From assembly GCA_964601185.1 (NCBI GenBank), contig CAZRMQ010000002.1, positions 1-57,769 on the forward strand: DNA of 57,769 nucleotides, read 5' to 3'. The notes below the pieces were generated by a model, which saw nothing but the letters and a program-made list of their open reading frames with translations, was not told the origin of the DNA and did no database searches. Made by a program: the position numbers and the translations under genes. Every line of letters begins with the position of its first letter. Position 1 is the stretch's first letter. Positions 13,110 through 52,272 of the stretch are shown here, one piece after another. The stretch is from an uncultured Pirellulales bacterium (lineage in GTDB: Bacteria; Planctomycetota; Phycisphaerae; Sedimentisphaerales; Anaerobacaceae).

Positions 13110-14339
13110 ATGGCTGGTATGTTTTATTCACTGAAGGAGGCAGCCGCGAAGCTCAACATGACAGAGCAGGAAGTAAAAGAGTTGGCCAGGCAGGGCAAAT
13201 TGCGCGAGTTTCGTGACGGCTCCAATTTACTGTTTAAGGTTGACGAAGTAGAAGCTCTGATGGCTGATACAGGTATTGCGGTATCTCAAGGTGAGCCGCT
13301 TCCATCGGAAGAGCCTGAAGAGTTTGCAGAGGCTCCGGAATCCGAACTAACATTTGAGCCGGAAGAAATAGGAGAAGCTGAGCCGGAGCCAGAGGCGGAA
13401 GAAAAAGCATTCGAGCAGCCTATTGAGCCTGAAGAGGAAATAGCAGGAGAAGAAATAGAGGAAGAAGCAGGAGAAGAAATAGGAGAAGCAGCAGAGGAAG
13501 CAGAGGAAGAAGGAGAGGAAGAAGAGATTTTATTGGCGCCGGAAAGCGGGGCACCGGCAGCGGAGGGTGATTTAACCAGTGCTGACACCGCCCTGTCCGG
13601 TGAAGGAGTCAACGTACTTGGCGAAACGGACCGTGATTATCAGCTTACAGACGATACTTTGGCTGAGACAACAATCGCACCGGGAACAGGCGGCACCGCG
13701 GGCATAAGCGGCACAACCGGTGAGGCCTTGCTGGAAGAGATTGAAGATGATGTTAGCCTGGATTCTTTCGGCAGCGGCTCAGGACTGCTCGACCTTTCGC
13801 TGCAGGCCGATGACACCTCATTAGGTGGTATTCTTGACGAAATCTACACGGCTGAGGGTGGGGAGGAAGGTCAGGAATCAGACGAGCCTGCTTCAGCGAT
13901 GGACATTGTTGCTGAGGCGGAATCAGCAGCGGGCGGAATTCGGGAAGAAGATCTGATCGGTCCAACCCCCCTAAGCGTGGCCCCGATGGTTGCGACGATG
14001 GCTCAGCCATATATCGAGGCGCAGCCGGACGCCATGAGCGACTCGTTGGGCATTATGTTGTTTCTGCCACTGTTGGCACTTGTTTATGCGGGGATAGTAA
14101 CTGTCGCTGCGCTTAGAGATGTAATGCCTACAATTCTCGGCAAGATAAAAACGCCGTATATTGGTTTATACATCATGGTTGGCTTTTCAGTAGCGGCACT
14201 TTTAACATTCGGCGTAAGTTTTATGCTTAGCGGCGGAATCAGCACAGCCGGCACAAAGGAAAAAAAGCCGAAAAAGCCAAAAGAGAAAAAGCCCAAAAAA
14301 GAGAAAAAAGCTAAAAAATCGAAAAAGACGGCTTCGTGA
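13110..14339 (+). CDS. HTH (excisionase/MerR-like HTH_17-type) protein with a polyacidic linker, two C-terminal TM helices and a Lys-rich tail
   Basis: N-terminus FYSLKEAAAKLNMTEQEVKELARQGKLREFRDGSNLLFKVDEVEAL, then a ~100-aa E/P/A-rich tract and the motif GSGLLDLSLQADDTSLGGILDEIY. Two hydrophobic helices follow, and the protein ends KEKKPKKPKEKKPKKEKKAKKSKK. GGAG lies 8 nt upstream of the ATG. Confidence 0.75.
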   Translation: MAGMFYSLKEAAAKLNMTEQEVKELARQGKLREFRDGSNLLFKVDEVEALMADTGIAVSQGEPLPSEEPEEFAEAPESELTFEPEEIGEAEPEPEAEEKAFEQPIEPEEEIAGEEIEEEAGEEIGEAAEEAEEEGEEEEILLAPESGAPAAEGDLTSADTALSGEGVNVLGETDRDYQLTDDTLAETTIAPGTGGTAGISGTTGEALLEEIEDDVSLDSFGSGSGLLDLSLQADDTSLGGILDEIYTAEGGEEGQESDEPASAMDIVAEAESAAGGIREEDLIGPTPLSVAPMVATMAQPYIEAQPDAMSDSLGIMLFLPLLALVYAGIVTVAALRDVMPTILGKIKTPYIGLYIMVGFSVAALLTFGVSFMLSGGISTAGTKEKKPKKPKEKKPKKEKKAKKSKKTAS

Positions 14340-14441: not shown

Positions 14442-15869
14442 TTACTCATTTTCTTTTTGGATAGGCCAGAAAACAGAATCACCATTATCCGCCCATAATC
14501 TTCTCGGCTCGCCTCTTGAATTCTTTCCAATTTGACCGCCGTCATCGGTAAAATTATAGCTAAAGCTGTAGAGGATAAAATCATCATCTGTTCTTTTATA
14601 AACCAACGGCTTATTGCTAAATGGGTCCATCGGCAATTCTTTCAAATAACCCGATGTCACCAGCTTATCAAGGCCGGCAGGGTATTCTTTGTTATCCAGG
14701 CAATACTGCTTGAGAGCTAAAATCATTACCGTTGCTTCATGCGAGATTTTAGCCCGATATACTATTTCAGAGACCCGATCGGCGGCTGGCATAAAGTAGC
14801 GTAATAAAAAGTACCTGTATTCAGATAGGGAAAAGAGCATTTTTTCAGCGTTATCAAGCTTGCGAATATGTTTTTCATACGGGGTTATTTTTGCATTCTC
14901 AGCACATCTATTATAAAACTCGTTGGCCTTAGACACTGTTTCATCTCGCCTTGCATGTATAATGCTTGCTGCGGTTGAAAGAGGCGTGAGCAGTCCGAAA
15001 TCCTTCCACATTTCAAAATCATTTTCATTGTCCATCCACCAGCCCCATTTTTGAGGAATCAGGTGGCCGCCTCCCAGTCCTCCATCGGTGAATACGTTTT
15101 GGACTATATCCAGAAATGCCAGTCTTTCACCTTCCGTATTCATTAGTGGATAACCTTGTTCATAAATCTGTGATAACTGTTGCTGGACTTGTTTTAAGTC
15201 GGTTGTCGGAATATCCGTGGTTGCTAAGATATTCAGTATTTGATTATGGGCAAGTGCACTGATAGCTGTCCCCACCAGCTGTTCAACAATCGTTCCCTTT
15301 CCCTGCCAATGACTGCCGGCTCGTGCAACAGCAACGCAATCTTCAAGTCCCTGGCGCGTTTGTCCTTCCTTTACATGTATGCGTGATTGCCAAATACCGA
15401 GCCTTGCCAGATGTTTGATCCTGTTTAGGTTCGGCAAAGTGATATCCCACAAAGTTCTTTTCTTGCTGTTCGGATCACATGTATATTCTTTGTAGCAATA
15501 TGACTTTGAGCTGCCGGCCTTAAATTCCTGCCAGGCGGCTTCGTTCTCTTTAAACCAGGGACTGAGATATTCATATTCGAGATCTGATAGCGCAATTCGA
15601 GCGGTCTTTGGCAGATAGTTATAACGCTTCATCCATTCACGAAGCACTGCGACTGTAACTGCTTCGAGAAAATTGGGTGGAACCTTATTCAGTCTTGCCC
15701 AATTCGTCAGTTCGGCGTCTGGAAAACCATCAGCTTTCGGAAACTCTACTCCGTCATGAGTTGAAACCGTTACAGGCTTACCTTGCTTAATGGCTTCAAC
15801 AGCATGATATATCATTAATTTAAATTGGATATATTGCGGTGCTTTCGTCTCTTTGAAAATAGGCACCAA
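14442..15869 (-). CDS. C-terminal part of the fourth PadR-linked membrane-protein paralog; its frame continues upstream to the TAG at 15942..15944
   Basis: 475-aa ORF. It carries the paralog motifs IVEQLVGTAISA, FTDGGLGGGHL and a GspG-like end YPAGLDKLVTSGYLKELPMDPFSNKPLVYKRTDDDFILYSFSYNFTDDGG. It has no N-terminal TM helix or head of its own. Confidence 0.6.
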   Translation of the reverse strand: MVPIFKETKAPQYIQFKLMIYHAVEAIKQGKPVTVSTHDGVEFPKADGFPDAELTNWARLNKVPPNFLEAVTVAVLREWMKRYNYLPKTARIALSDLEYEYLSPWFKENEAAWQEFKAGSSKSYCYKEYTCDPNSKKRTLWDITLPNLNRIKHLARLGIWQSRIHVKEGQTRQGLEDCVAVARAGSHWQGKGTIVEQLVGTAISALAHNQILNILATTDIPTTDLKQVQQQLSQIYEQGYPLMNTEGERLAFLDIVQNVFTDGGLGGGHLIPQKWGWWMDNENDFEMWKDFGLLTPLSTAASIIHARRDETVSKANEFYNRCAENAKITPYEKHIRKLDNAEKMLFSLSEYRYFLLRYFMPAADRVSEIVYRAKISHEATVMILALKQYCLDNKEYPAGLDKLVTSGYLKELPMDPFSNKPLVYKRTDDDFILYSFSYNFTDDGGQIGKNSRGEPRRLWADNGDSVFWPIQKENE

Positions 15870-15941
15870 ATTGTATCGGAAACATTTAAGAATTATGGCT
15901 TGCTGCTCAGCAGATAAATTGTCCCAGTATTTCTTATTGTC

Positions 15942-16544
15942 CTAAATCCATTTAAGAACTTGTGTTTGTTGCTCTTCGCTTAAATCTGTGAATCGAAATA
16001 TCTCCTCCAATTTTCCCCGCCAATCACGATAGGAAATAAACTCCTCTACTACTCCACCTCTGATAGGCTCTATGTACAGATTGCTGGCTTTTTCATAGTA
16101 TGGCCAGGCGTTATCTTCGTCCCGAACCTGTGGCCGACTCATCTGGTTTAAAAGAGCTAAGTAATCTACACTAATGGCTGGTTTGCCGGTTAAAAACCAG
16201 ATAGTATAAACAGTGAAACACAAAATCAGAATGCCTATAGTCTGAAATGTTCTTACAATGACGGTTCGCCAGAGCGGCCTGCAGCGCTTCTTGGCTCGGC
16301 GTAATAAAACCGCAAGCAGTTTCACATCGCCAAACTCTGATATTAGCTTCTGGGTCTTTTGCTCTTTTTCTTGGTCGCCGTCACAATCTTTCAGCTCATC
16401 TTCAAAATGCGCCGCCAATTCCACCAGCACATCTCGCTGCACTTTCCTGCGATAGCGCATTTTGTTTACGATCAATTTTATGAAATCTATCGCGCGGGCT
16501 GGCAGCCGATTGAATTGTGATTCAGTTTCTTTCCGCTTTTCCAT
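15942..16544 (-). CDS. N-terminal part of the fourth paralog (DUF1700/HAAS-like head plus TM helix), ended by a single in-frame TAG
   Basis: 200-aa ORF. Its first 100 residues differ from the 16559..18232 paralog at 9 positions by hand count. The TM helix is TFQTIGILILCFTVYTIWFL. It stops at TAG 15942..15944, in the same frame as the 14442..15869 ORF. Confidence 0.6.
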   Translation of the reverse strand: MEKRKETESQFNRLPARAIDFIKLIVNKMRYRRKVQRDVLVELAAHFEDELKDCDGDQEKEQKTQKLISEFGDVKLLAVLLRRAKKRCRPLWRTVIVRTFQTIGILILCFTVYTIWFLTGKPAISVDYLALLNQMSRPQVRDEDNAWPYYEKASNLYIEPIRGGVVEEFISYRDWRGKLEEIFRFTDLSEEQQTQVLKWI

Positions 16545-16558
16545 ATCGCCTTATCTTA

Positions 16559-18232
16559 TTATTGGTTCGCTTCTGATTTTAGGATAGGCCAGAAAACCGC
16601 ATCGCCATTATCCGTCCATAATTTCGGTTTGTCTTTGCTATCTTTGCCGATCTGGCCCCCATCGTCGGAAAAATTAAGGCCAACACTATACAGGGTAAAA
16701 TCATCTCCAATCTTTTTATAAACCAGCGGTTTGTCACTGAATGAGTCTATAGGTATTTCTTTAATGTAGCCGGCTGTCACTAATTCTTCCAAGCTATTCG
16801 GATAGGTGCCGACGTTTTGTTTGTATCTCAATAACACTATCAGCAGTAAAGTTGCTTGAACTTCGGTTTTACTTCGATAGGATATTTCATTTACCTTGCC
16901 AAGAGCAGGTGCCATGATTTCCAGGAATAAATTACCCTTAATAATCTGTATGCTCTCTTTATTAAAGTCTATTCCTTTGGCTTGAAGCTGGCCTGGATTC
17001 TCAGCAGCTATCTTCTCCCAGAAGGCGTAGAACCGGTCAGCCATTTCTCTGCTTTCTCGTTTGTTCGGATGAGTAAAAAAGATATGTCCAATCTGTATCA
17101 ATACATCATAAAAATCTGCGTTTTCAAAACCTCCAAATCCTATGGAACCTCCTAAATCCCGTAACCGTGGCAAATATAAATGTCCTCCACCTAAACGACC
17201 CTCAGTAAAACATCTTTGAATTTCATCATTAACAAATAACCTTTCTCCTTTGAAGCTTACGGTAAAATCCTCACCTAAGGTAATTTGCTCAAAATCTTTC
17301 TGCAGCGCAGTTAACAAGGCTGGTTCTATCTTAAATTCGCTTATGATGTCCCGGATTGTTCGAACAGATATGGCTTCGATAGCAATACCTACAAGCTGTT
17401 CAATAAGAGTTTTATTGCCTCTCAGGTGCTGACCAAAGCGATAACAGGATTTTATATCACTGAATGCATCCTCGAATTGGTCTTTTTCGGCACGAAGTTG
17501 TGCTCGCCATACTAAACTTCGGCACAATGTGCGAAATCCAGAAAGGCTTGGTATAATTACCCCGATCATGCCATCTGATTTATTTTTATTCACATACTCA
17601 GGCCAATAATACGGCTTTTGTGAGCCGGTGATAACAAGCTCAAGAGTCTCTTCATTATCGCTCAACCATTTTTCTATGAGCTGTTTTTGTTCCGGTGTAA
17701 CTTCGCCGGGCTTTTTCGAAAGAAGATCGAAGAGTTCTTTATTATCTTCCGACAATTGCTCATATCGCTTTTCTGCTTCGTTGTAAAAAGGTGCAGCGTT
17801 TAAGCTTTCATCAACTGCCGGCCTGACCATTTGATTAAACTCGGCGAGATAGTCAATAGTAACAGCTGGTTTCCCAGTGAAAAACCAAACCAAATAAAGG
17901 ACAAAGCACAAGATTAACACACCGACTGTTTGAAATGTCCGTACAACAACTGTTCGCCACAGCGGCCTGCAGCGTTTCTTTGCTCGGCGTAATAAAACCG
18001 CCAGCAGCTTCACATCGCCAAACTCTGTGATTAACTTCTGGGCCTTTTGCTCCTTCTCTTGGTCGCCGGCACAGTCTTTTAGCTCATCCTCAAAATGCGC
18101 CACCAGTTCCGCTTGTACATCCTGCTGCACTTTCCTGCGATACCGCATCTTGTTTACGATCAATTTTATGAAATCTGTAGCGCGAGCCGGCAGCCGATTG
18201 AATTGTGATTCAGTTTCTTTCCGCTTTTCCAT
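16559..18232 (-). CDS. PadR-linked single-pass membrane protein paralog (HAAS/DUF1700-like head, divergent outer domain, pseudopilin-G-like C-terminus)
   Basis: 557 aa. Head is FIKLIVNKMRYRRKVQQDVQAELVAHFEDELKD...ITEFGDVKLLAVLLRRAKKR, followed by one TM helix. Contains LIEQLVGIAIEA and ends YPNSLEELVTAGYIKEIPIDSFSDKPLVYKKIGDDFTLYSVGLNFSDDGG. Confidence 0.7.
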   Translation of the reverse strand: MEKRKETESQFNRLPARATDFIKLIVNKMRYRRKVQQDVQAELVAHFEDELKDCAGDQEKEQKAQKLITEFGDVKLLAVLLRRAKKRCRPLWRTVVVRTFQTVGVLILCFVLYLVWFFTGKPAVTIDYLAEFNQMVRPAVDESLNAAPFYNEAEKRYEQLSEDNKELFDLLSKKPGEVTPEQKQLIEKWLSDNEETLELVITGSQKPYYWPEYVNKNKSDGMIGVIIPSLSGFRTLCRSLVWRAQLRAEKDQFEDAFSDIKSCYRFGQHLRGNKTLIEQLVGIAIEAISVRTIRDIISEFKIEPALLTALQKDFEQITLGEDFTVSFKGERLFVNDEIQRCFTEGRLGGGHLYLPRLRDLGGSIGFGGFENADFYDVLIQIGHIFFTHPNKRESREMADRFYAFWEKIAAENPGQLQAKGIDFNKESIQIIKGNLFLEIMAPALGKVNEISYRSKTEVQATLLLIVLLRYKQNVGTYPNSLEELVTAGYIKEIPIDSFSDKPLVYKKIGDDFTLYSVGLNFSDDGGQIGKDSKDKPKLWTDNGDAVFWPILKSEANQ

Positions 18233-18247
18233 ATCGCTATGTCCTAT

Positions 18248-19882
18248 TTATTGGTTCACTTCTGATTCTGGCACAGGCCCAAAAACCCAGTCACCATCAT
18301 CCGCCCACATTCTTGGCTCGCCACGGCTGTTAAGACCAAGTCTGCCGCCGTCATCCTTAAAGTCCATGCCGACGCTATAAAGGACAAATTCATGTTCGGT
18401 CCTTCTGTATACTAATGGCCGTCCACCGAATGGGTCCATAGGAAGATAGTTCATATATCCAGTCGAAACCAGTTCAGAAAGATTCTCAGGATACCGGCCT
18501 TCATTCTTCTGGTATTGCATAATTGCCAATAGAGTTAACAAACCTATTCGGTGTGTTTCCAACCGCCAAGCTATCTGGCTTACTCTTTTATGTGCGGGAC
18601 CCAGAATCTTTAACATGAGGCTTGCCTGATTAAGGATCTGGTTCCATTCGTCTTCGTCTGTATCTTTATTGTACAAGTCCCACGGTGTTTCTTCAAATAA
18701 CCGATCAACTTGCTCGAAATATTCATCGATTGTCGCAATAAATTCCTGCCTGCTTGGATATCTGAATGTAAATAACCTCCATAAAAAGTCTTTGATATCT
18801 TGCACCACATACGGCAGGCCTTGCTTCAGGAGACGACCATCACCTTGGCCATCGTCGGTAAAACCTCGTTGAATCTGGTCGTACCAGAACACTTTTTCCG
18901 CTTCAAGGCTAATGATCGGCTTTCGTTTCTCGACCTGTTTTGCTAATTCCTCCTGGATTGCCCTTAAGGCATCTGTAGACACATCGGTGTTTTTCAAAAT
19001 CGAGCTAATTTCATTAAGGGGGATAGCCTCAATTGCCACCCCCACTAACTGCTCGATCAGCAAACCTTGGCCATGCAAATGATTGCCAAATTTCTGCAAG
19101 ACAGAGCAATCTCTCAGTGCAGAGTCAACATCTCCATTGTAAGCTTGAAGTTGAATCTGCCATCGCATGGCACGCGCTAAATTTTTGTAGCCAGGCAAGG
19201 ATTTCATAACGTCCGGCATAAGAGTTTCTACTAACTGACCCTCACCGCTTTTTTGATAACGACTCCAATAGTAAGGGCGTTGTGCAGCCATTCTGAGTGT
19301 TTCCAGAGACTTTCGATTATCTTCGAGCCATGAGACTAAGGACTGTAGCTGCACATCGTTAAAATCTGTGGGCCACTTTACTTTGCTTTTAATAAGCCAG
19401 CCGGGCATTTCCACATAAAGCTCAATGGCTTTTTCATAATAAGGTCTTGCATTATCAACAGCATCTCTGTCAGCCCGTACAAACTCGGTCAGCCAATCAG
19501 CGTAATTAACCTTAACAGTTGGCCTTCCAATAATCAGAGGACTACTACAGATAAGCAAATACAAAAAGATGACCCCCAATACTTGAAGACCTCGCACAAG
19601 AACTTTTTTCCAGACAGGCCTGCAGCGTTTCTTTGCCCGGCGCATAAGATGAGCGAGGAGTTTTGGATCGCCAAATTCGGCGATTAACTTCTGAGCTTTT
19701 TGCTCTTTCTCTTGGTCGACGGCACAGACTTTTAGCTCATCCTCAAAATGCGTCGCCAATTCTGCTTGTACATCCCGCCGCACTTTCTTGCGATATCGCA
19801 TCTTCTTGATTACCAGCTTTATAAACTCGACGGCACAAGCAGGAAGATTTTGAAAATCTGTCTTTTTATGTCCCTTTGACAT
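18248..19882 (-). CDS. PadR-linked single-pass membrane protein paralog (HAAS/DUF1700-like head, divergent outer domain, pseudopilin-G-like C-terminus)
   Basis: 544 aa with the same architecture. Head is FIKLVIKKMRYRKKVRRDVQAELATHFEDELK...IAEFGDPKLLAHLMRRAKKR, followed by one TM helix. Contains LIEQLVGVAIEA and ends YPENLSELVSTGYMNYLPMDPFGGRPLVYRRTEHEFVLYSVGMDFKDDGG. Confidence 0.7.
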   Translation of the reverse strand: MSKGHKKTDFQNLPACAVEFIKLVIKKMRYRKKVRRDVQAELATHFEDELKVCAVDQEKEQKAQKLIAEFGDPKLLAHLMRRAKKRCRPVWKKVLVRGLQVLGVIFLYLLICSSPLIIGRPTVKVNYADWLTEFVRADRDAVDNARPYYEKAIELYVEMPGWLIKSKVKWPTDFNDVQLQSLVSWLEDNRKSLETLRMAAQRPYYWSRYQKSGEGQLVETLMPDVMKSLPGYKNLARAMRWQIQLQAYNGDVDSALRDCSVLQKFGNHLHGQGLLIEQLVGVAIEAIPLNEISSILKNTDVSTDALRAIQEELAKQVEKRKPIISLEAEKVFWYDQIQRGFTDDGQGDGRLLKQGLPYVVQDIKDFLWRLFTFRYPSRQEFIATIDEYFEQVDRLFEETPWDLYNKDTDEDEWNQILNQASLMLKILGPAHKRVSQIAWRLETHRIGLLTLLAIMQYQKNEGRYPENLSELVSTGYMNYLPMDPFGGRPLVYRRTEHEFVLYSVGMDFKDDGGRLGLNSRGEPRMWADDGDWVFGPVPESEVNQ

Positions 19883-19949
19883 AATAACCTCGAATTTTCA
19901 ACCAAAATATTTTGAACCTCAGGTAAAACCTGGGGCTAAAAACTGTTGG

Positions 19950-20291
19950 TTAGGCCGTCGTTAGCGCTCCGCCGAAGACAAGATTCAGGCCGGCTGTCAA
20001 TTCTTTAAGTTGCGCCTTTTGTCTTGCCAATTCATCTTTGCCTTTACTGGTGATTGAGTAGTATCTTCTTTTTCTGCCGGAATCTGAATCTTCCCACTTT
20101 CCTTTTACGAGCTTTCTGGCCTCCAGATTATAAAGCAGTGGATAGAGCGTTCCTTTGCCGAGCGTCAGGACTTCGCCGCTTCGCTGCTCGATAGTCTGGC
20201 TCAGCTCGTACCCATACATCTGGCCGCGAGAGAGAATTTCCAAGACAACCACCGGAGCGATACCTTTTAATAATTGACTTTCAAACTTCAT
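19950..20291 (-). CDS. PadR-family winged-helix transcriptional regulator
   Basis: 113 aa. The block VLEILSRGQMYGYELSQTIEQRSGEVLTLGKGTLYPLLYNLEARKLV...RRYYSITSKG is the canonical PadR wHTH signature. It is the first gene of the minus-strand operon. Confidence 0.9.
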   Translation of the reverse strand: MKFESQLLKGIAPVVVLEILSRGQMYGYELSQTIEQRSGEVLTLGKGTLYPLLYNLEARKLVKGKWEDSDSGRKRRYYSITSKGKDELARQKAQLKELTAGLNLVFGGALTTA

Positions 20292-20345
20292 AGATACCTC
20301 CTATTTTTGTATTGCGATTATGTACTTGTTTATTTGCCTTGTTTT

Positions 20346-20370
20346 ACATATTATGTTATACATACTATGT
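20346..20370. promoter_or_regulatory. Candidate PadR operator: interleaved ACAT/ATGT half-sites
   Basis: ACATATTATGTTATACATACTATGT reads ACAT-N3-ATGT-N3-ACAT-N3-ATGT, an imperfect 25-bp palindrome 55-80 nt upstream of the PadR start. PadR operators are commonly ATGT/ACAT inverted repeats. Confidence 0.35.
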
Positions 20371-20562
20371 GATGTCAATCAAAAAATAAAAAATTTATAA
20401 ATTTTTTTGGGAGTAAACTGCTGTAGGCAGATAGGAGGTGATTAATACCTTTATGGTTTTAATTTCCTTGAAAAGTAACATTTTGGTCATAAAATAGTTC
20501 AGGATTTGCTTGATGATTATGCTTATCCGTTCGTATATAAAAAAAGGATAGACGAAAAATTC

Positions 20563-20648
20563 GGAGCAGTGGCTGAGTGGTTTAAAGCGACGGTCTTGAA
20601 AACCGTTTTACCCTTTGGGTAACGGGGGTTCGAATCCCTCCTGCTCCG
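20563..20648 (+). tRNA. tRNA-Ser (anticodon TGA)
   Basis: Hand-folded cloverleaf. Acceptor GGAGCAG/CTGCTCC plus discriminator G. Anticodon stem ACGGT/ACCGT with loop CTTGAAA. Long variable arm TACCC-TTT-GGGTA. T-loop GGTTCGAATCC. No encoded CCA. Confidence 0.9.
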
Positions 20649-20661
20649 GTGTGTTTGTTTT

Positions 20662-22215: not shown

Positions 22216-22264
22216 ATAGTAATCATTAGTATAAATAATTAAAAGCTTTGTGTGCCGTGATAAG

Positions 22265-22708
22265 ATGCTACTAAATAGTAAAAAAGACTTAATCGATTTA
22301 TTTCGGGACAGGTGCAAAAAACACAATCTCAACATGACTCCCCAACGCATTGCAATATATGAGGAGCTGATTAAGGCAAGAAATCATCCCTATTCTGAAG
22401 ATATTTTTGAGAAGGTTAGAAATGTTTTTCCTGACATTTCCCTTGATACTGTATATAGAACGCTCTCAACCTTTGCCAAAATTGGTGTTGTTAATATAGT
22501 CGAAGGATATGGTGAAGCAAAACGGTATGACCCTGATGTAAATCCCCACCACCATTTCAGATGCCGGAGATGCAATAAGATAGTGGATTTTCATAATCAA
22601 AGTTACGATAATCTGAAGGTCCCAAAAGCGTTTCGAAAAAATTTCAGTGTTACTAATGTGAAAGTAATCCTGGAAGGTGTATGCAATAAATGTGTCAAAA
22701 GGCGTTGA
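22265..22708 (+). CDS. Fur-family metalloregulator (PerR/Fur-like)
   Basis: N-terminal wHTH (TPQRIAIYEEL...HPYSEDIFEKV), a His cluster NPHHHF and two CxxC pairs (RCRRCNKIV and GVCNKCV). The ORF track begins at GTG 22250; ATG 22265 is preferred. Confidence 0.85.
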   Translation: MLLNSKKDLIDLFRDRCKKHNLNMTPQRIAIYEELIKARNHPYSEDIFEKVRNVFPDISLDTVYRTLSTFAKIGVVNIVEGYGEAKRYDPDVNPHHHFRCRRCNKIVDFHNQSYDNLKVPKAFRKNFSVTNVKVILEGVCNKCVKRR

Positions 22709-22727
22709 TATATTTTTTGCATAAATA

Positions 22728-22761
22728 GTAAGAATAATTACTATTTAAGATATATTCTTAT
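22728..22761. promoter_or_regulatory. Two adjacent 17-mers related to the 22199 box, upstream of the ferritin-like gene
   Basis: GTAAGAATAATTACTAT (22728..22744) matches the 22199 box at 14/17. TTAAGATATATTCTTAT (22745..22761) matches at 13/17. They lie 82-115 nt upstream of ATG 22843. Confidence 0.45.
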
Positions 22762-22842
22762 ATTTAGTTGAAGCGGTGCAAGACAATTAATGTTGTCTAT
22801 ATATTAGTTTGTTCAATGAGATATTAGAAAGGAGATAAAAAG

Positions 22843-23394
22843 ATGGCAAAAGTAGCAAGAGAAATGGTTGAAAAGGCAGGAATCAAAGTCGACGATTTGC
22901 TGAAGCTGCTGGTTAAGAATGCCGCTGCAGAATTGACAACTTTTTACTACTATACGATTCTGCGGGTCAATCTTATAGGCCTGGAAGGCGAGGGAATCAA
23001 AGAAATTGCGGAAACAGCCAGGATTGAGGACCGCAACCACTTTGAAGCCTTGGTGCCCCGCATATACGAGCTTGGCGGTGAATTGCCCAGCGACATGAAG
23101 GTTTTTCACGATATGTCTGCATGCCCGCCTGCATCCTTGCCAAAGGACCCAACTGACATCAAAGCTATGTTGACGGTGCTGGTAAACGCTGAGAGGTGTG
23201 CTGTACGTGGGTATACTCAGATCTGCAATATGACAGCCGGCAAAGATCACCGCACATACGCTCTGGCCCAGGCGATTCTTAATGAGGAAATCGAGCACGA
23301 ATCCTGGTTCTCGGAGTTTCTCGGTGAGGGGCCATCGGGTCACTTCTTACGTAGAGGTGAAACCTCCCCATTCGTAAGCAACTTTATGAGGTAA
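22843..23394 (+). CDS. Ferritin-like di-iron protein, Dps-like (DPSL/bacterioferritin-related)
   Basis: 183 aa. Four-helix-bundle metal ligand pattern: AAELTTFYYYT, EDRNHFEAL, ERCAVRGY and NEEIEHESWF (ExxH). RBS AGGAGA lies upstream. Confidence 0.7.
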   Translation: MAKVAREMVEKAGIKVDDLLKLLVKNAAAELTTFYYYTILRVNLIGLEGEGIKEIAETARIEDRNHFEALVPRIYELGGELPSDMKVFHDMSACPPASLPKDPTDIKAMLTVLVNAERCAVRGYTQICNMTAGKDHRTYALAQAILNEEIEHESWFSEFLGEGPSGHFLRRGETSPFVSNFMR

Positions 23395-23403
23395 ATGATA
23401 AAC

Positions 23404-23445
23404 GGGGATAGGATAGCCTCTAATACACAAGTGCTTCCTATCCCC
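23404..23445 (+). terminator. Stem-loop downstream of the ferritin-like gene
   Basis: GGGGATAGGA (23404..23413) pairs perfectly with TCCTATCCCC (23436..23445). The loop is 22 nt and the downstream T-tract is weak. Confidence 0.4.
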
Positions 23446-23472
23446 CTATTTACCATCCATATAGGAAAAAAG

Positions 23473-23500
23473 ATAGCCCAAGAGATGTAGGGCTATTTCC
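23473..23500 (+). terminator. Second stem-loop with a T-rich tail
   Basis: ATAGCCC-aagagatgta-GGGCTAT followed by TTTCCATTT. Confidence 0.4.
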
Positions 23501-23630
23501 ATTTGGTCAATTCTAAGTTGTTACCGTTTTAGCTTTACACACACGCCTTTATATCTACGAAATTGTAATTTCTTGTAATTGTTCTACGATTTTGTTATGA
23601 TACTGCGGTTTTTTGGAGAGAGCAGAAATT

Positions 23631-25157
23631 ATGAAGGTAAAAGTCGCAAAAGAAGTTAAGCTTTTAAGCGATATATCGAAGGCCTTTGCCGAATCGCTTG
23701 ACCTTGAAGAGACGTTGAAGTCCATATTTCACTCGCTGGATATGCACCTTAAACTGCGCAGAGGAACTATCACTTTGCTCGACCAGGATACTGAGCTAAT
23801 TAATATTAAGATAGCTCACGGCCTTAGCGAAAAATCAAAAAAAATGGGTAGCTACAAGGTTGGCGAGGGAATTACCGGAATGGTAGTGCAAAACGGCAAA
23901 GAGATTGTTGTTCCTGATATTTCCAAAGACCCGCGCTTTCTGTACAAAACCGGGCCGAGAGGACGAGGAAAGAATCAGAAAATAGCCTTTTTCTGTGTTC
24001 CCATCAAGCTGGAAGGTAAGACCATCGGTGCGTTGAGCGTTGATAAGCAGGCCGGCAGTAAAGATGATTTTCAATATAGTCTCAGGCTCCTGAACGTCAT
24101 CGCTACGATGGTGGCACAGGCGGTGAAACTGAATAAACTTTTTGAGTCCAAGCGAAAGCAATTGCAGGATGAGAATGTGCGATTGCGTCAGGAATTAAAA
24201 GCTCGATTCAATATCCATAATATGGTCGGCAGCAGTAATGCAATTCAAGAGGTCTATCGGCTTATCGAGCAGGTTGCCGATAGTAATGCCACCGTGCTTA
24301 TCCGCGGCGAAAGCGGGACAGGCAAAGACCTCGTGGCTCACGCAATTCATTACAACAGCCCGCGTGCAGACAAGCCTTTCGTGAAAGTGAACTGTACGGC
24401 GCTGCCGGAGACACTGTTGGAAAGCGAGCTTTTCGGACATGAAAAGGGTGCCTTTACCGGCGCTACCGAGCGAAAACTCGGCAGGTTCGAAAGAGCGCAT
24501 GGCGGAACAATCTTTCTCGATGAGATTGGGGATTTCGCGCCGAATCTGCAGGTCAAACTCTTACGCATTATTCAGTTCAAAGAGTTTGAAAGGCTTGGAG
24601 GTTTGGAGACTCTGAAGACAAACGTCAGGATTATTGTTGCGACACACAAGAACCTTGAAGAACACATTGAGAAAGGGCTTTTTCGCGAAGACCTCTACTA
24701 TCGAATAAACGTCTTTCCTATTTATCTGCCGCCGTTGCGGGAACGTAAAGATGACATCATGCTGATGGCGGATTGCTTCCTTGAGAAGTTAGCAGCCGAG
24801 AACAATAAGCGAATCAGCCGGATTTCAACTCCTGCAATTGAAATGCTCACCAGGTACCATTGGCCGGGCAATGTAAGAGAATTGGAGAATTGCATCGAAA
24901 GGGCGGTTTTATTATGTGATGGAGATGTCATTCGTTCCGAGCATTTGCCACCCTCGCTTCAAATGATAAAAAAGAAAGGACCTGTAGCCAAGAGGTCTTT
25001 GGTAGAGATCGTTGAAAATACCGAGAAGGAGCTTATCGTTGATGCACTGAAGAAGTGCGGCGGCCAGCAGCGCAAAGCCGCTCATGATCTGGGTATAACC
25101 GAACGCATCCTCGGCTATAAAATCAAGAAGTACAAAATCTATCCGAAGTATATCTAA
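23631..25157 (+). CDS. Sigma54-dependent enhancer-binding protein, GAF-AAA+-Fis HTH (NifA/NtrC-like)
   Basis: N-terminal GAF-like domain. AAA+ core with Walker A GESGTGKD, the sigma54-contact loop [10 protein letters not shown] and Walker [10 protein letters not shown]-terminal [25 protein letters not shown]. The ORF track starts at TTG 23613; ATG 23631 follows GGAGAG. Confidence 0.9.
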
Positions 25158-25299
25158 TCCATTAGTGCATACAATTTTGTAGATTACATCTAAATAAACT
25201 ACTTTTTTGTAGTTTTCTCATTTTTCTCCCTAAACAACCGACATCCATAACATCTTGAGATATAAGCTATTACAACTGTTTAAAAGAAAAAGTGTGTTT

Positions 25300-25315
25300 T
25301 GGCATAGCAATTGCT
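25300..25315 (+). promoter_or_regulatory. Sigma54 (-24/-12) promoter
   Basis: TGGCAT-agcaa-TTGCT matches TGGCAC-N5-TTGCW with correct GG/GC spacing. It lies 95 nt upstream of the porin-like gene that heads the amtB-glnK unit, directly downstream of the bEBP gene. Confidence 0.6.
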
Positions 25316-25409
25316 CATATAAAACAATCGATGATATTGCTTTTGAGCTGAGTATCACACAATCAGAAAACTGAGCGAATTGAAGCTTGATTATAAGGAA
25401 TTGATTTAA

Positions 25410-26186
25410 GTGAAAAAGCTTATACTTTTAATTTTGGGAATGAGCGTATTGAACTATGCTGTGACATGCTTTGCAGAGGATACAATCGAGCTTGAGACTT
25501 CGGTAGATTTTCTCAGCAAATATATCTGGCGTGGTCAGAATATTGATGATGACCCGGTTTTTCAGCCAAGCATTAGTGCAGCTTATGGTAATCTGGCTGC
25601 ATCGATCTGGGGCAATCTTGAACTGACCAATATAAACGATAAGAGCGGCGATTTTTCGGAGATTGATTATTCATTGGGCTGCACCGGTACTTTGCCGCGC
25701 GTTGATGGTGTGGGGTATTCGATTGGTGTTATCTACTATGATTTTCCGAGTAGTGCCGCCGATGGTACCAGGACTCCGGATACAACGGAAGTGTATTGGG
25801 GTCTTAATTTAGATGTACCTTTAAGTCCTTCGGTGACAATCTATCATGATGTTGACGAGGCGGAAGGCTCGTATGTGTCACTATGTGCAGGGCACGATAT
25901 TGAAAAGATTGTAGAGCTTGGACCGGATATACCTGTCGGCATGGAAATCAATACGAGCTTAGGCTGGGGCAGCGGCTCCTACAATAAGTATTACTGGGGC
26001 ACCGACCAAAGCAAGCTAAATGACCTGGCGTTTTCTGTTTCTTTCCCGGTAGAAATCGCAGGCTGGACGGTAAAACCAAGCTTGAGTTATGTTACGTTAC
26101 TAAGTGATGATATACGTGATACAGATGCTTACGGGACGGACAGCGATTTCTTTGTTGCCGGTGTTAGTTTATCAAAGGCTTTTTAA
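25410..26186 (+). CDS. Outer-membrane beta-barrel/porin-like protein commonly linked to amtB (TIGR02001-like)
   Basis: 258 aa, GTG start after AAGGAA, with a signal peptide ending CFA. Alternating beta-strand pattern with SKYIWRGQNIDDDPVFQPSISAAYGNL and a terminal aromatic (..LSKAF). The family assignment is from memory. Confidence 0.55.
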   Translation: MKKLILLILGMSVLNYAVTCFAEDTIELETSVDFLSKYIWRGQNIDDDPVFQPSISAAYGNLAASIWGNLELTNINDKSGDFSEIDYSLGCTGTLPRVDGVGYSIGVIYYDFPSSAADGTRTPDTTEVYWGLNLDVPLSPSVTIYHDVDEAEGSYVSLCAGHDIEKIVELGPDIPVGMEINTSLGWGSGSYNKYYWGTDQSKLNDLAFSVSFPVEIAGWTVKPSLSYVTLLSDDIRDTDAYGTDSDFFVAGVSLSKAF

Positions 26187-26215
26187 GAATGGAAATAGAT
26201 ATGGACGGTAGAAAA

Positions 26216-27574
26216 ATGAAAGTTTTATTTATCTGTGTTGGGCTGGTAGTAACATTAGCTGTGTGTGCACCTGCATTTGCCGATTCTGCTGGTGCAGGTG
26301 ACACAGCTTTGGAAAGTATCAACATAGCCAATCTCAAACAAGGTCTGGACACGGTATGGGTATTGTTAGCAGCGTTTTTGGTCTTCTTTATGCAAGCTGG
26401 GTTTGGAATGGTGGAAGCCGGGTTCATCCGTGCAAAAAACACCTGCAATATTTTAACCAAAAACTTCCTTGATTTCTGTATGGCTTCGTTGGCTTTTTTC
26501 TTAGTGGGTTACGCATTTATGTTCGGTGACGGAAACAGCTTTATAGGCACAAAAGGCTGGTGTCTGCTCGGCCTTGAGCCGATAGCTAACGGTGTCCCTC
26601 TATATGCCTTTTGGCTGTTCCAGGCGGCATTTTGCGGCGCTGCTGCTACAATAGTCGCCGGCGGCATGGCGGAAAGAATGAAATTTATCGGATACCTTAT
26701 TTACTCTTTTACTATTTCTGCTCTTATTTATCCTATTGTCGGACACTGGATTTGGGGTGGCGGTTGGCTCGCAAAAATGGGTTTTGCCGATTTTGCCGGC
26801 TCGACCGTCGTTCATACGGTCGGTGGTTTTGCTGCCTTAGTTGGCACCAGCATACTTGGCCCGCGGGAAGGAAAGTACAACATCGACGGAACGCCCCGTG
26901 TTCTTGCGGGTCACAGTATCCCGCTGGCCTCTTTGGGAGTATTTATCCTGTGGTTTGGCTGGTTTGGCTTTAATCCAGGTTCGACATTGAGTGTCGGCGA
27001 TGGTATGGCCATTGGACGCGTAGCGCTGAACACCAACATGGCAGCAGCTCTCGGTGGTATTGTTGCAATGCTAACCGTATGGAAAAGATTCGGGAAACCG
27101 GACCTGTCAATGGCTATGAACGGTGCACTCGCAGGGCTGGTCGCAATCACCGCTCCATGTGCGTATGTGGACCCCTGGGCATCAATTGTGATTGGAGGCA
27201 TCGCAGGTTATATTGTTGTAAGAGGTGTTGAGCTGCTCGACAAATTGAAAATAGATGACCCCGTCGGTGCCGTTCCGGTACACGGTATATGTGGAGTATG
27301 GGGCACAATCTGTACAGGAATATTCGGCAAAAAAGCTCTCGGTTTGGCAAACGAAGGCTTCATATACAGTGCGAATCCGATGCAGCTCGGCGTCCAGATT
27401 GTCGGTTCTGTTACAACAATTGCATTTGTTATCATAACAATGGGACTGTTATTCAAGCTAATAGACATGACTATCGGTCTGAGAGTCTCACGCGAAGAAG
27501 AACTTCGCGGCCTCGATATAGGCGAACACGGGATGGAAGCGTACGGTGGCTTCCAGATATTCAGTACAAGCTAA
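26216..27574 (+). CDS. amtB: Ammonium transporter
   Basis: Amt/MEP signature blocks: FFMQAGFGMVEAGF, DFAGSTVVHTVGGFAAL, FILWFGWFGFNPGS and GAVPVHGICGVWG (twin-His). The ORF track starts at 26189; ATG 26216 gives a clean signal peptide. Confidence 0.92.
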   Translation: MKVLFICVGLVVTLAVCAPAFADSAGAGDTALESINIANLKQGLDTVWVLLAAFLVFFMQAGFGMVEAGFIRAKNTCNILTKNFLDFCMASLAFFLVGYAFMFGDGNSFIGTKGWCLLGLEPIANGVPLYAFWLFQAAFCGAAATIVAGGMAERMKFIGYLIYSFTISALIYPIVGHWIWGGGWLAKMGFADFAGSTVVHTVGGFAALVGTSILGPREGKYNIDGTPRVLAGHSIPLASLGVFILWFGWFGFNPGSTLSVGDGMAIGRVALNTNMAAALGGIVAMLTVWKRFGKPDLSMAMNGALAGLVAITAPCAYVDPWASIVIGGIAGYIVVRGVELLDKLKIDDPVGAVPVHGICGVWGTICTGIFGKKALGLANEGFIYSANPMQLGVQIVGSVTTIAFVIITMGLLFKLIDMTIGLRVSREEELRGLDIGEHGMEAYGGFQIFSTS

Positions 27575-27596
27575 CTCTTGATAAAGGAAAGCTAAA

Positions 27597-27938
27597 ATGA
27601 AGCTGATAATCGCATATATTCAACCACACAAATTGCAGGATGTCAAAAAGGCCTTATATAAAAATGAAGTCTTTAAAATGTCCGTGACTAACGCTCTTGG
27701 CTGTGGTGAACAGCAGGGTTATACCGAAAGCTATCGAGGCATAAAATTCGAGGTCAACCTGCTTAAAAAAGTCAGGCTGGAGATAGCAGTAAATGAGGAC
27801 TTTGTCGAAAAGACTATAAATGCGATTATTGAAGGTGCAAAGACGGGCCGGATAGGCGATGGGAAAATATTAGTGCTGGATTTGCCTGAGTGCATCCGCA
27901 TTCGGACCGGAGAAAAAGGTAAAAAAGCAATTGGCTAA
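27597..27938 (+). CDS. glnK: P-II nitrogen regulatory protein
   Basis: 113 aa. [20 protein letters not shown]..., a T-loop with Tyr ([11 protein letters not shown]) and a C-terminal [15 protein letters not shown]. It sits immediately downstream of amtB. Confidence 0.9.
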
Positions 27939-28027
27939 GAACTAAAACGATAGACATTGAATCTGTATTTGTGTAGATTTACTATGATTGAAGAGTGAAT
28001 AAAAATTTTTCAGAAAGGAACCAAATA

Positions 28028-29440
28028 ATGACTCCAAAAGATTTTTTTGAGTTTGCAAAGAAACACAATGCTGAGATGGTCGATTTAAAATTTACAGACC
28101 TTCTTGGAACCTGGCAGCACTGCAGCTTTCCTATTGATACATGGGACGAGGAGACATTCAAGGATGGTGTCGGATTCGATGGCTCGTCCATCCGCGGCTG
28201 GCAGGGAATACACGTCTCGGATATGCTGGCTATACCTGATCCTGATACTACGGTCATCGACCCATTTTTTGCCAAACCAACGGTGAGCATTATTGCTAAT
28301 ATTGTTGACCCGGTCACAAGAAAGGACTATAGCCGCGACCCGCGTCACGTGGCGCGCAAAGGAGCAGAGTATTTAAAGAAAACCGGAATCGCGGATACCT
28401 GCTATATTGGGCCTGAGCCGGAATTCTTTATATTTGACGAGGTGCGCTACGAGCAGAATCAGTACACGGGTATGTACAAGATAGATTCGGTCGAGGGAGC
28501 CTGGAATACCGCTCGTTTTGAGGAGCCGAATCTCGGATATAAGCCGAGCTTTAAGGGCGGCTACTTCCCTGTCAGCCCTACTGATACGTATCACGACCTG
28601 CGCGGTGAGATGGTCTATGAAATGCGAAAGGTCGGGATTGTCGTTGAAGCGCACCACCATGAAGTGGCAACAGCCGGTCAAAGCGAGATCGATATGCAGT
28701 TTGCTGAGCTTGTAAAAATAGCAGATCAGTTTATGTGGTATAAGTACATCATCAAGAACATTGCCAGGCGAAATGGAAAAACCGTTACTTTCATGGCCAA
28801 ACCCATCTTCCAGGATAATGGCAGCGGCATGCACTCACACTTCTCGCTATGGAAAGGCGGTAAGCCGTTGTTTGCAGGCAACGGGTATGCAGGATTGAGC
28901 GATATTGGATTGTTTTCATGTGGCGGTTTGTTGAAGCACGCACCTGCGATCCTGGCATTTGCGGCACCGACGACGAACTCTTATCGTCGGCTGGTTCCGG
29001 GCTTTGAGGCACCGGTGAATCTTGTTATGAGCGCCCGGAATCGCTCAGCAGGTGTTCGCATCCCGATGTATTCAGACCGCCCAAAGGCAAAACGCCTTGA
29101 GTTTCGCTGTCCCGACCCAAGTTGCAACGGCTATATAACCTGGACGGCTATGCTTATGGCGGCGTTAGATGGAGTTCAAAATAAAATCGATCCAGGCGAG
29201 CCGCTGGATCGGGATATCTACGAAATGACGCCGGAAGAATTGGCCAAATATCCCAAAACTCCTGGCTCACTGGCTGAAGCAATTGATGCTCTGGAAAAAG
29301 ACCATAAGTTCCTATTGGCAGGCGGCGTCTTCACTGAAGATTTAATAGAGACATGGATTAAATGGAAAAAGGAAAAAGAGCTTAATGAGATGGCCCTGAG
29401 GCCGCACCCGTATGAGTTTCATCTGTATTACGACAGTTAA
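28028..29440 (+). CDS. glnA: Glutamine synthetase type I
   Basis: GS-I blocks [42 protein letters not shown] and [16 protein letters not shown] 28028 is preceded by AAAGGAA; the ORF track starts at GTG 27995. Confidence 0.95.
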
Positions 29441-29442
29441 TA

Positions 29443-29505
29443 ACAGAAGACAGAAGACGGAGGACAGAAGGCAGAATTTCTGTCATCTGTCTTTCCGTCC
29501 TCTGG
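29443..29505. repeat. Heptamer-repeat hairpin immediately after the glnA stop
   Basis: ACAGAAG ACAGAAG ACGGAGG ACAGAAG GCAGAAT, followed by its imperfect complement TTCTGTCATCTGTCTTTCCGTCCTCTGG. This gives a ~25-bp imperfect stem. Confidence 0.6.
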
Positions 29506-29686
29506 ATAAATTTGGAATTGGGTTGCGGGCGAGGCTTGCCCAAAGTATGCCGCATTGGCAAGATCGGCTGAAAGAGCAAGCCTTGCCCAAATATGGTTCT
29601 TAAGCGTTGCTCATAATATACCAGAAATCAAATATGGAAAAAGTTTGATTTTGCATATTCTTTAATAATACCTCCAGATGTTGAGG

Positions 29687-29708
29687 AGCATCGAAAGATG
29701 CTTTTTTT
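29687..29708 (+). terminator. Canonical intrinsic terminator ~250 nt downstream of glnA
   Basis: AGCATC-GAAA-GATGCT followed by TTTTTT. Confidence 0.65.
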
Positions 29709-29893
29709 ACGCCAGCTTTTCATTATTAGAATGTCTACTTATATTATTTGCTGTTCTAATACTGTTTATTAAAGCAATTTGCTCTCTAAGATCTGAAAGT
29801 CGGAGTATAATATTTATAGTAAAGCTTTATCTTTTGAAGCGATTGAGTTATTAGCCTCTATATTGGGGCACTTTTATGGCATAAACCAGTATT

Positions 29894-34483: not shown

Positions 34484-34562
34484 GAGAATTAGAGATTAGA
34501 GAATCTAAAATTCCAATTTGCCAATTAACTAATCAGCTAATTCACTAATAAACTTAACAGTT

Positions 34563-42550: not shown

Positions 42551-43006
42551 TTATTATGCCAATCATTGATGATTAAATCGTTTCTTCCATAGAGTTAGCT
42601 TAACCGGTTAAATGCAGCAAATCACGTCTAATATAATATATAAGAACGTCTGCGACTTTCCGCAAGAAGGTTATTTGCTATAACGTCGTAATTATCAATT
42701 AAGATTTCCCTTGATTTGGTGGCACCAGATTTAGTATAAAATAGTATGGTAAGGTCTATTGGCTTCTTCATTGTGAGAAACTCTGTATTGCAAGGTATAG
42801 AGTAATGGAGTAGTCACTTATCGAGCTTGATAAGGAAGGAGGTAGAAAACAAGGCCAAAAAGCTCTCTTTTGTAGCACCAAACCGAGCGAGAGTGTAACT
42901 TTTTTATAAGGTCGGTCTTCTATCCTGTATTCTGATTTTGTGTTTTAGTGTATAGGCAAAACGTGTTGATTGTTGTTTTAAGTTATTGTTTGAGAGAGGA
43001 TTAATC

Positions 43007-51887: not shown

Positions 51888-52272
51888 TTTTGTTTTGTAG
51901 CCCGTATAGAAGGTCAGCCTTAAAAATAGCGATACCTGTGGTGAGCCTGTCAAATCCATAGGAATAGCTCGAAAGATAAACAAATTATATCATTTTTGTA
52001 TTTGTAATTCAATATGGCAGAACCCCGCTCCTTCGACCCTGCTCAGGACGGGCTTGCGGGAACCCATCGTATTTGTTCGAGAGTAGTATGGTTTTACGCC
52101 CCTTAGGGGGAAAAAAGTCTTGATATATGGAAGGTTGATGATACACTTGCGGCCTGGAATTGCCGAATTACGATTGAAAATCGCAAATCGTAAATTGAAA
52201 ATCGAACTGTTATGGATAAGAAATTGCAAGTGATAAAACTTGGACAAAGACTATTTATAAGAGGTAAAAGAA

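Follow-up and report, generated by a model that had tools for sequence, protein, structure and literature searches.

The 57,769-nt stretch of DNA analysed here (contig CAZRMQ010000002.1 of an uncultured Planctomycetota bacterium; hereafter the window, to which all positions without a locus label refer) carries on its minus strand a gene for a PadR-family regulator followed by three tandem paralogs of a single-pass membrane protein. The regulator gene (19950..20291) encodes a 113-aa winged-helix protein of the type with a short, one-helix C-terminus, which scores above the cut-off of the Pfam PadR family (PF03551, E=1e-23, 83.5 bits against 27) and below that of the acidobacterial family TIGR03433 (padR_acidobact, 92.7 bits against 101.8). 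The paralogs, named A, B and C in order from the PadR gene, occupy 18248..19882 (544 aa), 16559..18232 (557 aa) and 14442..16544 (a 701-codon frame; C belongs to a class of 700 aa whose middle domain carries an insertion of ~150 residues), and the intergenic gaps are 67 nt between PadR and A, 15 nt between A and B and 14 nt between B and C. These coordinates, lengths and gaps had been reported in an earlier, sequence-only reading of this DNA and were all reproduced; its count of three to four paralogs is corrected to three, the 200-aa and 475-aa open reading frames (ORFs) being the two halves of paralog C. Downstream of the array lies a convergent gene (13110..14339, plus strand), and upstream are a tRNA-Ser gene (20562..20649, plus strand) and a GH43 gene, so that the unit consists of PadR, A, B and C.

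All three paralogs share a four-part architecture. In paralog A this comprises a cytoplasmic, HAAS-like head (residues 1-95; 19598..19882, minus strand, as are the parts that follow), a transmembrane helix assigned by hydropathy and a positive-inside count (residues 98-118; 19529..19591), an all-alpha, periplasmic middle domain (residues 121-420; 18623..19522) and a pseudopilin-G-like tail (residues 421-544; 18251..18622). By alignment, the four motifs quoted in the sequence-only reading were found in each of A, B and C. Every paralog has a single hydrophobic segment (residues ~98-118) with seven Lys or Arg among the 15 residues before it and zero to two after it, which argues for an N-in/C-out topology. 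The AlphaFold2 (AF2) model of paralog A has a pLDDT of 85.7 and a pTM of 0.75. Overall identity among the three proteins is 38-40%, distributed unevenly over 65-91% in the head (91% for B versus C), 24-72% in the transmembrane helix, 29-32% in the middle domain and 44-52% in the tail.

A profile search of 1.84 billion representatives of clusters at 50% identity matched 36,881 clusters at E<=1e-3, of which 2,192 reached E<=1e-30; the weaker tiers probably include partial relatives. Each paralog has well over 1000 relatives in the database at E<=1e-3, and the best 120 matches per paralog are near full length, with 47-100% identity and, for C, mostly ~700 aa long, far more than chance would give. 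The named hits are all proteins from Sedimentisphaerales, Phycisphaerae or Planctomycetota metagenome-assembled genomes except for one labelled Euryarchaeota (P0017). Most are annotated 'hypothetical'; one NCBI record labels a family member 'DUF1700 domain-containing protein', and another named hit is annotated 'general secretion pathway protein G'. Among GTDB species-representative genomes, 307 stretches encode a relative, and 80 loci from about 78 genomes were examined in detail (labels such as L060 denote loci). A PadR gene was found by script directly upstream and on the same strand at 62 of the 63 assessable GTDB loci; at the 63rd, L060, it is present and overlapped by an over-extended ORF, which brings the count to 63 of 63. 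Approached from the other side, through the operator described below alone, a family gene follows PadR in 76 of 82 metagenome loci. The linkage between PadR and these membrane proteins, which the sequence-only reading had proposed from this one locus, is essentially universal in the family. Clustering of conserved neighbours otherwise returned only housekeeping synteny (HflX, GpsA and similar).

Array size varies among loci. Among the 48 arrays that are complete in the fetched DNA, 21 contain two copies and three contain three, so two or three copies recur in half of them, and the commonest state is a single copy (24/48). Multi-copy arrays mix ectodomain classes in 22 of 26 cases, in no fixed order, which implies that the duplications are old and the copies non-redundant.

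Upstream of the PadR gene lies a conserved 39-nt element containing the promoter and a putative operator (20340..20378, minus strand). The promoter is sigma-70-like and scores 11 of 12, with a -35 box TTGACA (20378..20373), a 17-nt spacer and a -10 box CATAAT (20355..20350). Two CATAnTATG palindromes, 14 bp apart, extend across the spacer and the -10 box (ACATAGTATGT ATA ACATAATATGT). With <=12 mismatches allowed, the element (TTGACATTGCATAGTATGCATAACATAATATGCAAAACA in consensus) is found upstream of PadR in 58 of 68 loci, and the other intergenic DNA is not conserved. A position weight matrix of the element gives the window site 62.5 bits and exceeds 18 bits at one place per locus, the PadR promoter, across the window and the 80 loci (about 1.2 Mb); no second site of >=18 bits was found in the window or in the flanks of the 80 loci. 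In metagenome contigs, the operator core occurs 124 times at 120 loci, and 110 of the 124 instances have a PadR ORF start within 300 nt. Of the other 14, seven run off the contig and three are palindromic sites read on the reverse strand. From the position of the dyad over the spacer and -10 box, together with its conservation, we strongly infer that PadR binds this putative operator and represses its own transcription by promoter occlusion.

At L099:1420-1442, a perfect palindromic operator core has no PadR gene nearby, and a gene recognised by eye as encoding a DEAD-box helicase starts 159 nt downstream; this site is possibly an additional PadR target, or else a chance match. Operator instances at L100, L112 and L173 also lack a PadR gene.

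The head had been proposed to resemble HAAS/DUF1700 and permease-prefix domains, and profile comparisons support the resemblance. Single-sequence matches to HAAS (PF22564) have E=0.0075 for A and E=0.036 for C; among 60 diverse members, 26 match at E<0.01, the best at E=2.3e-5. The head consensus, from a hidden Markov model (HMM) of 140 representatives, matches PF22564 over profile positions 2-54 of 55 (E=8.7e-5, 23.3 bits, cut-off 27) and the permease prefix NF038403 (perm_prefix_1; E=1.1e-4, 21.9 bits, cut-off 30). HAAS has been described as three helices, the third kinked at a GxP motif, always encoded next to a stand-alone PadR-like winged helix-turn-helix protein (PMC11237479). In the AF2 model of paralog A, head helices span residues 15-28, 32-50 and 56-70, the chain is kinked at G71-D72-P73, and a helix of residues 73-118 continues into the membrane. 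F70 and G71 are invariant in 138 of 138 sequences, and at the third motif position, 42 of them have P, 58 have A and 25 have V; paralog A has G-D-P, conforming to GxP, and B and C have G-D-V. At the level of the family, these comparisons suggest that the head is a HAAS domain, with scores that are sub-threshold, specific and consistent.

The tail had been likened to the globular domain of the major pseudopilin GspG. Single-sequence matches to Pfam T2SSG and TIGR01710 are weak (E=0.007-0.05; paralog A against TIGR01710, E=0.0069). The tail consensus scores above the cut-off of PF08334 (24.3 bits against 21; E=3.3e-5, profile positions 21-100 of 108) and below that of the TIGR01710 equivalog (22.4 bits against 88.85). 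When the 140-representative profile was compared with all Protein Data Bank (PDB) sequences, the sole match below E=0.5 was GspG/XcpT (2kep_A, E=0.0028), aligned from the alpha1-C helix (AL..Y....G.YP) through GYLKxLPxDP and on to F.LYS.G.D, and GspG proteins made up five of the seven matches at E<10. The AF2 model of residues 415-544 (pLDDT 86.1) consists of a long amphipathic helix, the YP..L..LV..GY...LP.DP segment, a beta-sheet and a D/G-rich loop. Its top two Foldseek matches in the PDB are Vibrio EpsG structures, 4lw9_F and 3gn9_A (probability 0.99 and 0.98; target-normalised template-modelling scores 0.51 and 0.54; rmsd 3.9 and 3.1 A), and type IV pilins rank next. The agreement of three independent methods argues for a pseudopilin-G-like domain, as the earlier reading had held.

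Like GspG/EpsG/XcpT (PF08334, TIGR01710; PDB 2kep, 3gn9, 4lw9), the tail has an alpha1-C-like amphipathic helix (A-L-x-x-Y-x-x-x-x-G-x-Y-P), a GY(L)xxLPxDP(W/Y) segment, a beta-sheet with F-x-L-Y-S-x-G and a D/G-rich loop, and GspG is its best profile and fold match among solved structures. GspG binds Ca2+ at the D/G-rich loop. Unlike GspG, the family proteins lack a class III signal peptide, a G|FTLIE methylation site and a hydrophobic alpha1-N; the domain stands at the C-terminus of a 540-700-aa protein, and the genes lie outside a gsp operon. No prepilin motif (G|F(T/S)LIE) was present in the 389 family proteins scanned, and in paralog A the helix before the domain (residues 422-461) is amphipathic, the only hydrophobic segment being residues 98-118; true pseudopilins in related loci do carry N_methyl. 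Type II secretion system (T2SS) and type IV pilus (T4P) genes were absent from the scanned ORFs of the window. Since both the prepilin signal and hydrophobic alpha1-N are absent, the family proteins are not pseudopilins and cannot polymerise like a pilin. Membership of the GspG family was accordingly rejected on signal peptide, alpha1-N, equivalog score and operon context, and the tail is a domain relative of GspG, in keeping with the earlier suggestion of a pilin-like domain outside a pilus context.

Tail, head and middle-domain HMMs were also run against all ORFs of the 80 loci, and returned no further informative relatives except a partial tail-like ORF at L037 and a chimera at L052. Partial ORFs at the ends of two loci (L037:15371-15703 and L036:14893-15300, both minus strand) contain a tail-like domain (tail HMM E=1.9e-5) and are otherwise unlike the family, so the pilin-like tail may occur in further architectures. 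At L052:10691-11620, a 309-aa ORF lies 15 nt past the last array gene. Its first ~35 residues are weakly head-like (..EYIKLAITKIHFRR.., E=0.41), and it continues with a prepilin N_methyl motif (GFSLIELLVV) and DUF1559; it is possibly a recombination chimera between the 5' end of a paralog and a pseudopilin gene.

The middle domain carries the family motifs DNAxPxYxKA, LIEQLVGxAI and QRxFTDxGxGGGH. Its consensus had no match in Pfam or NCBIfam, and the full-length AF2 model compared with the PDB by Foldseek gave nothing at E<=0.001, the best match (E=0.058) being to generic helical repeats. It therefore appears to be a novel all-alpha domain with no recognisable solved relative. Proteins with this ectodomain and no HAAS head form a conserved family of their own, ~450 aa long, with a short N-terminus, a signal-anchor helix, the middle domain and a pilin-like tail. 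A profile-profile comparison (hhalign) aligned the HAAS and head-less families with a probability of 99.5% (E=3.5e-22) over 327 columns, corresponding to residues 172-527 of paralog A.

The genomic context of these head-less relatives gives an unexpected hint of function. In five variant operons (L132, L148, L152, L187 and L188), the same operator and a closely similar PadR gene precede genes for an ATP-binding cassette (ABC) ATPase and a predicted ABC-2 permease. At L148, L132 and L188, whose DNA extends further, genes for a DUF2092/AhpC-type redoxin-like protein and a head-less ectodomain relative follow the permease gene. These variants are a minority of the operator-anchored loci, and the Pfam assignments were made for L148 only, where the order (L148:3852-10939) is PadR, ABC ATPase, ABC-2 permease, DUF2092/AhpC redoxin, head-less paralog and a canonical 694-aa HAAS member. 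In L148 and L201, the PadR operator occurs only before PadR, and it is absent from the GntR clusters described below. Judged by its head-less occurrence in exporter and redoxin clusters, the ectodomain is a periplasmic module in its own right, tied to exporter and redox functions; it is probably envelope-facing, with a role in the envelope or in the handling of exported compounds. The same occurrence in ABC-exporter clusters means that copies fused to HAAS could act as effectors in addition to sensing.

At L201:3504-12010, a ~6-kb block separates PadR and its operator from the HAAS partner, so that two regulatory systems are interleaved. The block encodes an extracytoplasmic function (ECF) sigma factor, a zf-HC2 anti-sigma factor, an ABC ATPase, a permease, a head-less ectodomain protein and a DUF2092/AhpC protein. 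At L202:451-10353 and L203:6776-10377, one or two head-less proteins are encoded with a GntR regulator (~135 aa), an ABC ATPase and a permease (-redoxin), in clusters that we take to resemble YtrA-type antibiotic-responsive ABC operons.

The paralogs of an array resemble one another in the head far more than in the ectodomain. Within arrays, median identity is 75% for heads and 33% for ectodomains, and at a matched ectodomain divergence of 30-40%, heads are 77% identical within arrays versus 63% between loci. The nearest ectodomain neighbour never lies in the same array (0/55), and the nearest head neighbour does so in 13 of 55 cases. Divergence of PadR follows that of the head (Spearman 0.56) more closely than that of the middle domain (0.24), and the difference is sharper in partial correlation (0.52 versus 0.06). 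Heads thus appear to diverge with PadR and ectodomains to follow paralog class, the pattern that head-PadR co-adaptation predicts. In the window, the 5' ends of B and C (16245..16572 and 17933..18260, minus strand, short upstream spacer included) are ~90% identical in DNA, with ectodomains ~32% identical in protein; this ~300-nt stretch suggests a gene-conversion tract confined to the head and transmembrane region.

The frame of paralog C is interrupted by a single in-frame TAG (15942..15944, minus strand). An intact 700-aa homolog that is 99% identical to C (P0121) has Glu (GAG) at this codon and differs at three other residues, which rules out stop-codon reassignment or recoding and leaves either a strain-level G-to-T nonsense allele or an assembly error. 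If the TAG is real, the resulting 200-aa fragment of C, comprising head, transmembrane helix and a stub, could still titrate PadR.

Ravi et al. (mSystems 2024; PMC11237479) defined the HAAS-PadR dyad by comparative genomics, as a proposed alternative to signalling through two-component systems; examples include Listeria LltR-Lmo0600 (DUF1700), LstR with a HAAS-FtsW/RodA partner, and LftR-LftS (DUF1048). HAAS fusions listed there involve PspC, LiaI-LiaF-TM, Toastrack, FtsX/MacB-PCD, FtsW/RodA, multi-transmembrane domains and pentapeptide repeats; the terms 'pilin', 'pseudopilin', 'GspG' and 'Planctomycet' were not found in its main text, and a literature search on PadR, Planctomycetes and pseudopilin returned nothing relevant. 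The earlier reading knew of no description of the present architecture: the pairing of PadR with HAAS has in fact been described, and the pilin-tailed form is not mentioned in that study, nor are several HAAS partners in tandem with one PadR, and no fusion on its list is similar. As in the known dyads, a stand-alone, short PadR gene lies immediately upstream in an operon that appears autorepressed, the partner is predicted to begin with a three-helix HAAS-like domain whose third helix is kinked at F-G-D-[PAV] and leads into a membrane segment, and the proposed logic runs from a sensor domain through HAAS to release or capture of PadR. The present system differs from them in its single transmembrane helix with a ~430-residue periplasmic module, helical and pseudopilin-like, in its tandem arrays of two or three HAAS partners per PadR, and in its sub-threshold HAAS scores. 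With PadR linkage throughout and domain matches at sub-threshold statistics, the system most likely belongs to the HAAS-PadR dyads.

Two other systems invite comparison. The best score of the window PadR (92.7 bits) is with TIGR03433, the regulator of the acidobacterial ADOP permeases (NF038403), and as in that system a head, here matching perm_prefix_1 (E=1.1e-4), is joined to a membrane protein whose periplasmic domain is large. Unlike the ADOP permeases, however, the partners have one transmembrane helix and no FtsX/MacB permease, the scores fall below the cut-offs and the phylum is Planctomycetota; the ADOP assignment was rejected on the TIGR03433 score (below 101.8 bits) and the absence of an FtsX domain. 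The second resemblance, to ECF sigma factors and their single-pass anti-sigma partners, is a working one only: here too a membrane-tethered domain would sequester a small DNA-binding regulator, with one transmembrane helix, a variable periplasmic sensor and autoregulation. The proteins are unrelated, however, PadR being a repressor and HAAS not an anti-sigma domain. L201 contains a genuine ECF sigma/zf-HC2 pair within the locus, beside a head-less paralog.

Together, these observations appear to suggest an autoregulated PadR-HAAS signalling operon with interchangeable periplasmic sensor or effector ectodomains in a Sedimentisphaerales-type Planctomycete, a reading that we consider probable, with room for doubt. 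In this model, PadR would bind the dyad-symmetric operator over the spacer and -10 box of its own strong promoter and repress a four-gene PadR-A-B-C transcript. At the level of the family, A, B and C are type-II-oriented single-pass inner-membrane proteins with a cytoplasmic HAAS-like domain and a periplasmic two-domain module. A periplasmic or envelope cue would engage the ectodomain, and the resulting change would pass through the transmembrane helix to the kinked third HAAS helix (the FGD[PAV] motif), so that PadR is captured or released; this would set transcription of the operon and possibly of distal targets too. Because the paralogs of an array share near-identical heads and differ in ectodomain class, one PadR would integrate several inputs, and a plausible arrangement of several receptors feeding one PadR, as the sequence-only reading had imagined, is consistent with the evolutionary pattern. 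HAAS-fused copies may be sensors and demand-induced effectors at once.

Several points weigh against this model. HAAS-PadR contact has no biochemical demonstration in the literature searched, and the HAAS scores lie under the curated Pfam and NCBIfam cut-offs (23.3 versus 27 and 21.9 versus 30 bits), with the strict GxP motif in only about 30% of members. The Foldseek E-values for the tail (0.086 and 0.14) are not significant on their own, and an hhalign comparison of the family profile with a single true GspG (L028) fell in the right register at a non-significant E=0.13. Gene conversion and physical linkage alone could produce the co-variation of head and PadR, whose correlation carries no valid p-value because locus pairs are not independent. 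Co-transcription of PadR-A-B-C is inferred solely from the 14-67-nt gaps and the absence of convincing terminators. Finally, the operator search pattern was stringent and derived from these same PadR promoters, and since the only operator found is the operon's own, a pure 'sensor' reading is left without a visible output.

The last point speaks for an effector-first arrangement, in which the membrane proteins are PadR-repressed cargo for envelope maintenance or as exporter accessories, and the head merely titrates PadR as dosage feedback while no signal is sensed. The conservation of the ectodomain without a head in ABC-2 exporter and redoxin clusters also favours it, as do the variant operons, in which an ABC ATPase, a permease and a redoxin stand under this PadR and its operator; in Listeria, moreover, what is strongly derepressed is the HAAS/DUF1700 partner itself (PMC6624303). 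It leaves unexplained, however, why heads remain 65-91% identical and track PadR while ectodomains diverge down to ~30% identity, and why 22 of 26 arrays mix ectodomain classes, and a head that only titrates would not need a conserved kink motif coupled to the transmembrane helix. We think it a minority prospect as a full account, although the effector and sensor models are not mutually exclusive and an effector role is equally open. A similarly tentative chance attaches to the boldest form of the sensor model, a previously unrecognised receptor class of Sedimentisphaerales-type Planctomycetes in which a novel helical domain and a polymerisation-incompetent pseudopilin domain sense an envelope ligand. 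Several receptors of different specificities would then report to one PadR, their heads kept uniform by concerted evolution, in a transmembrane many-inputs-to-one-repressor pathway that takes over this function from two-component or ECF signalling; candidate ligands are a substrate of the ABC-2 exporters found with the head-less version and the pseudopilus itself.

A closer tie to pseudopili appears improbable. The tails might dock on a T2SS or type IV pilus-like fibre or assembly platform, making the proteins accessories that report assembly state to PadR, and the tail does match GspG from the alpha1-C helix through the beta-sheet and D/G-rich loop. ORFs that resemble pilM, pilN and pilT (by eye, from N-terminal sequence) lie 5-7 kb downstream at 7-10 of 80 loci, and at L052 the array is immediately followed by the DUF1559 pseudopilin gene, whose leader is head-like. 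However, the family proteins examined have no prepilin motif or hydrophobic alpha1-N, the scanned ORFs of the 57.8-kb window include no T2SS or T4P genes, prepilin-type genes fall within +-10 kb at only 11 of 81 loci with no fixed adjacency, and the pil-like neighbours look like background synteny. Least credible by far is a recent tandem duplication under pseudogenisation, of no special significance, for which the in-frame TAG in C and the about 90% DNA identity of the B and C 5' ends could be cited. The data contradict this reading: other genomes hold at least 120 near-full-length homologs for each paralog class (47-100% identity), an intact C copy exists (P0121, 99% identical), arrays of two or three copies recur in 24 of 48 complete loci, and ectodomains only 29-32% identical show that the duplications are old.

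On the autoregulated PadR-HAAS model, the family offers a large and clean natural data set for a dyad that has almost no biochemistry behind it, with a strict PadR partner, a sharp operator, a one-transmembrane topology and arrays of one to three partners. The specificity and stoichiometry of the head-PadR pair, and its concerted evolution, are directly testable here. The family also illustrates how a pseudopilin-G fold has been recruited away from a fibre, to form the C-terminal domain in a periplasmic module that head-less proteins share. It provides a functional lead, towards the handling of the envelope or of exported compounds, for two sizeable sets of Planctomycete proteins now listed as 'hypothetical', in a phylum that has had little study.

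PADLOC returned no defence-system match for the paralogs, and a reading as phage defence was therefore abandoned. The convergent gene at 13110..14339 (plus strand) encodes a 409-aa protein with an N-terminal HTH_17 domain (E=4.6e-7), a highly acidic low-complexity region of ~250 residues, hydrophobic and apparently membrane-spanning segments, and a Lys-rich tail (KKPKKPKEKKPKKEKKAKKSKK). Further along the window, at 22250..35987 (plus strand), genes for a Fur-family regulator and a ferritin-like protein lead into a block for nitrogen assimilation, whose products are a GAF/sigma-54 activator, an ammonium transporter, glutamine synthetase and both subunits, large and small, of glutamate synthase. 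Tandem paralogs of ~1050 aa at 42986..46156 and 46343..49498 (plus strand) each contain PA14 and DUF1349 domains, and a Laminin_G_3 protein is encoded on the opposite strand at 49641..51983; these three proteins are probably secreted and glycan-binding or glycan-degrading.

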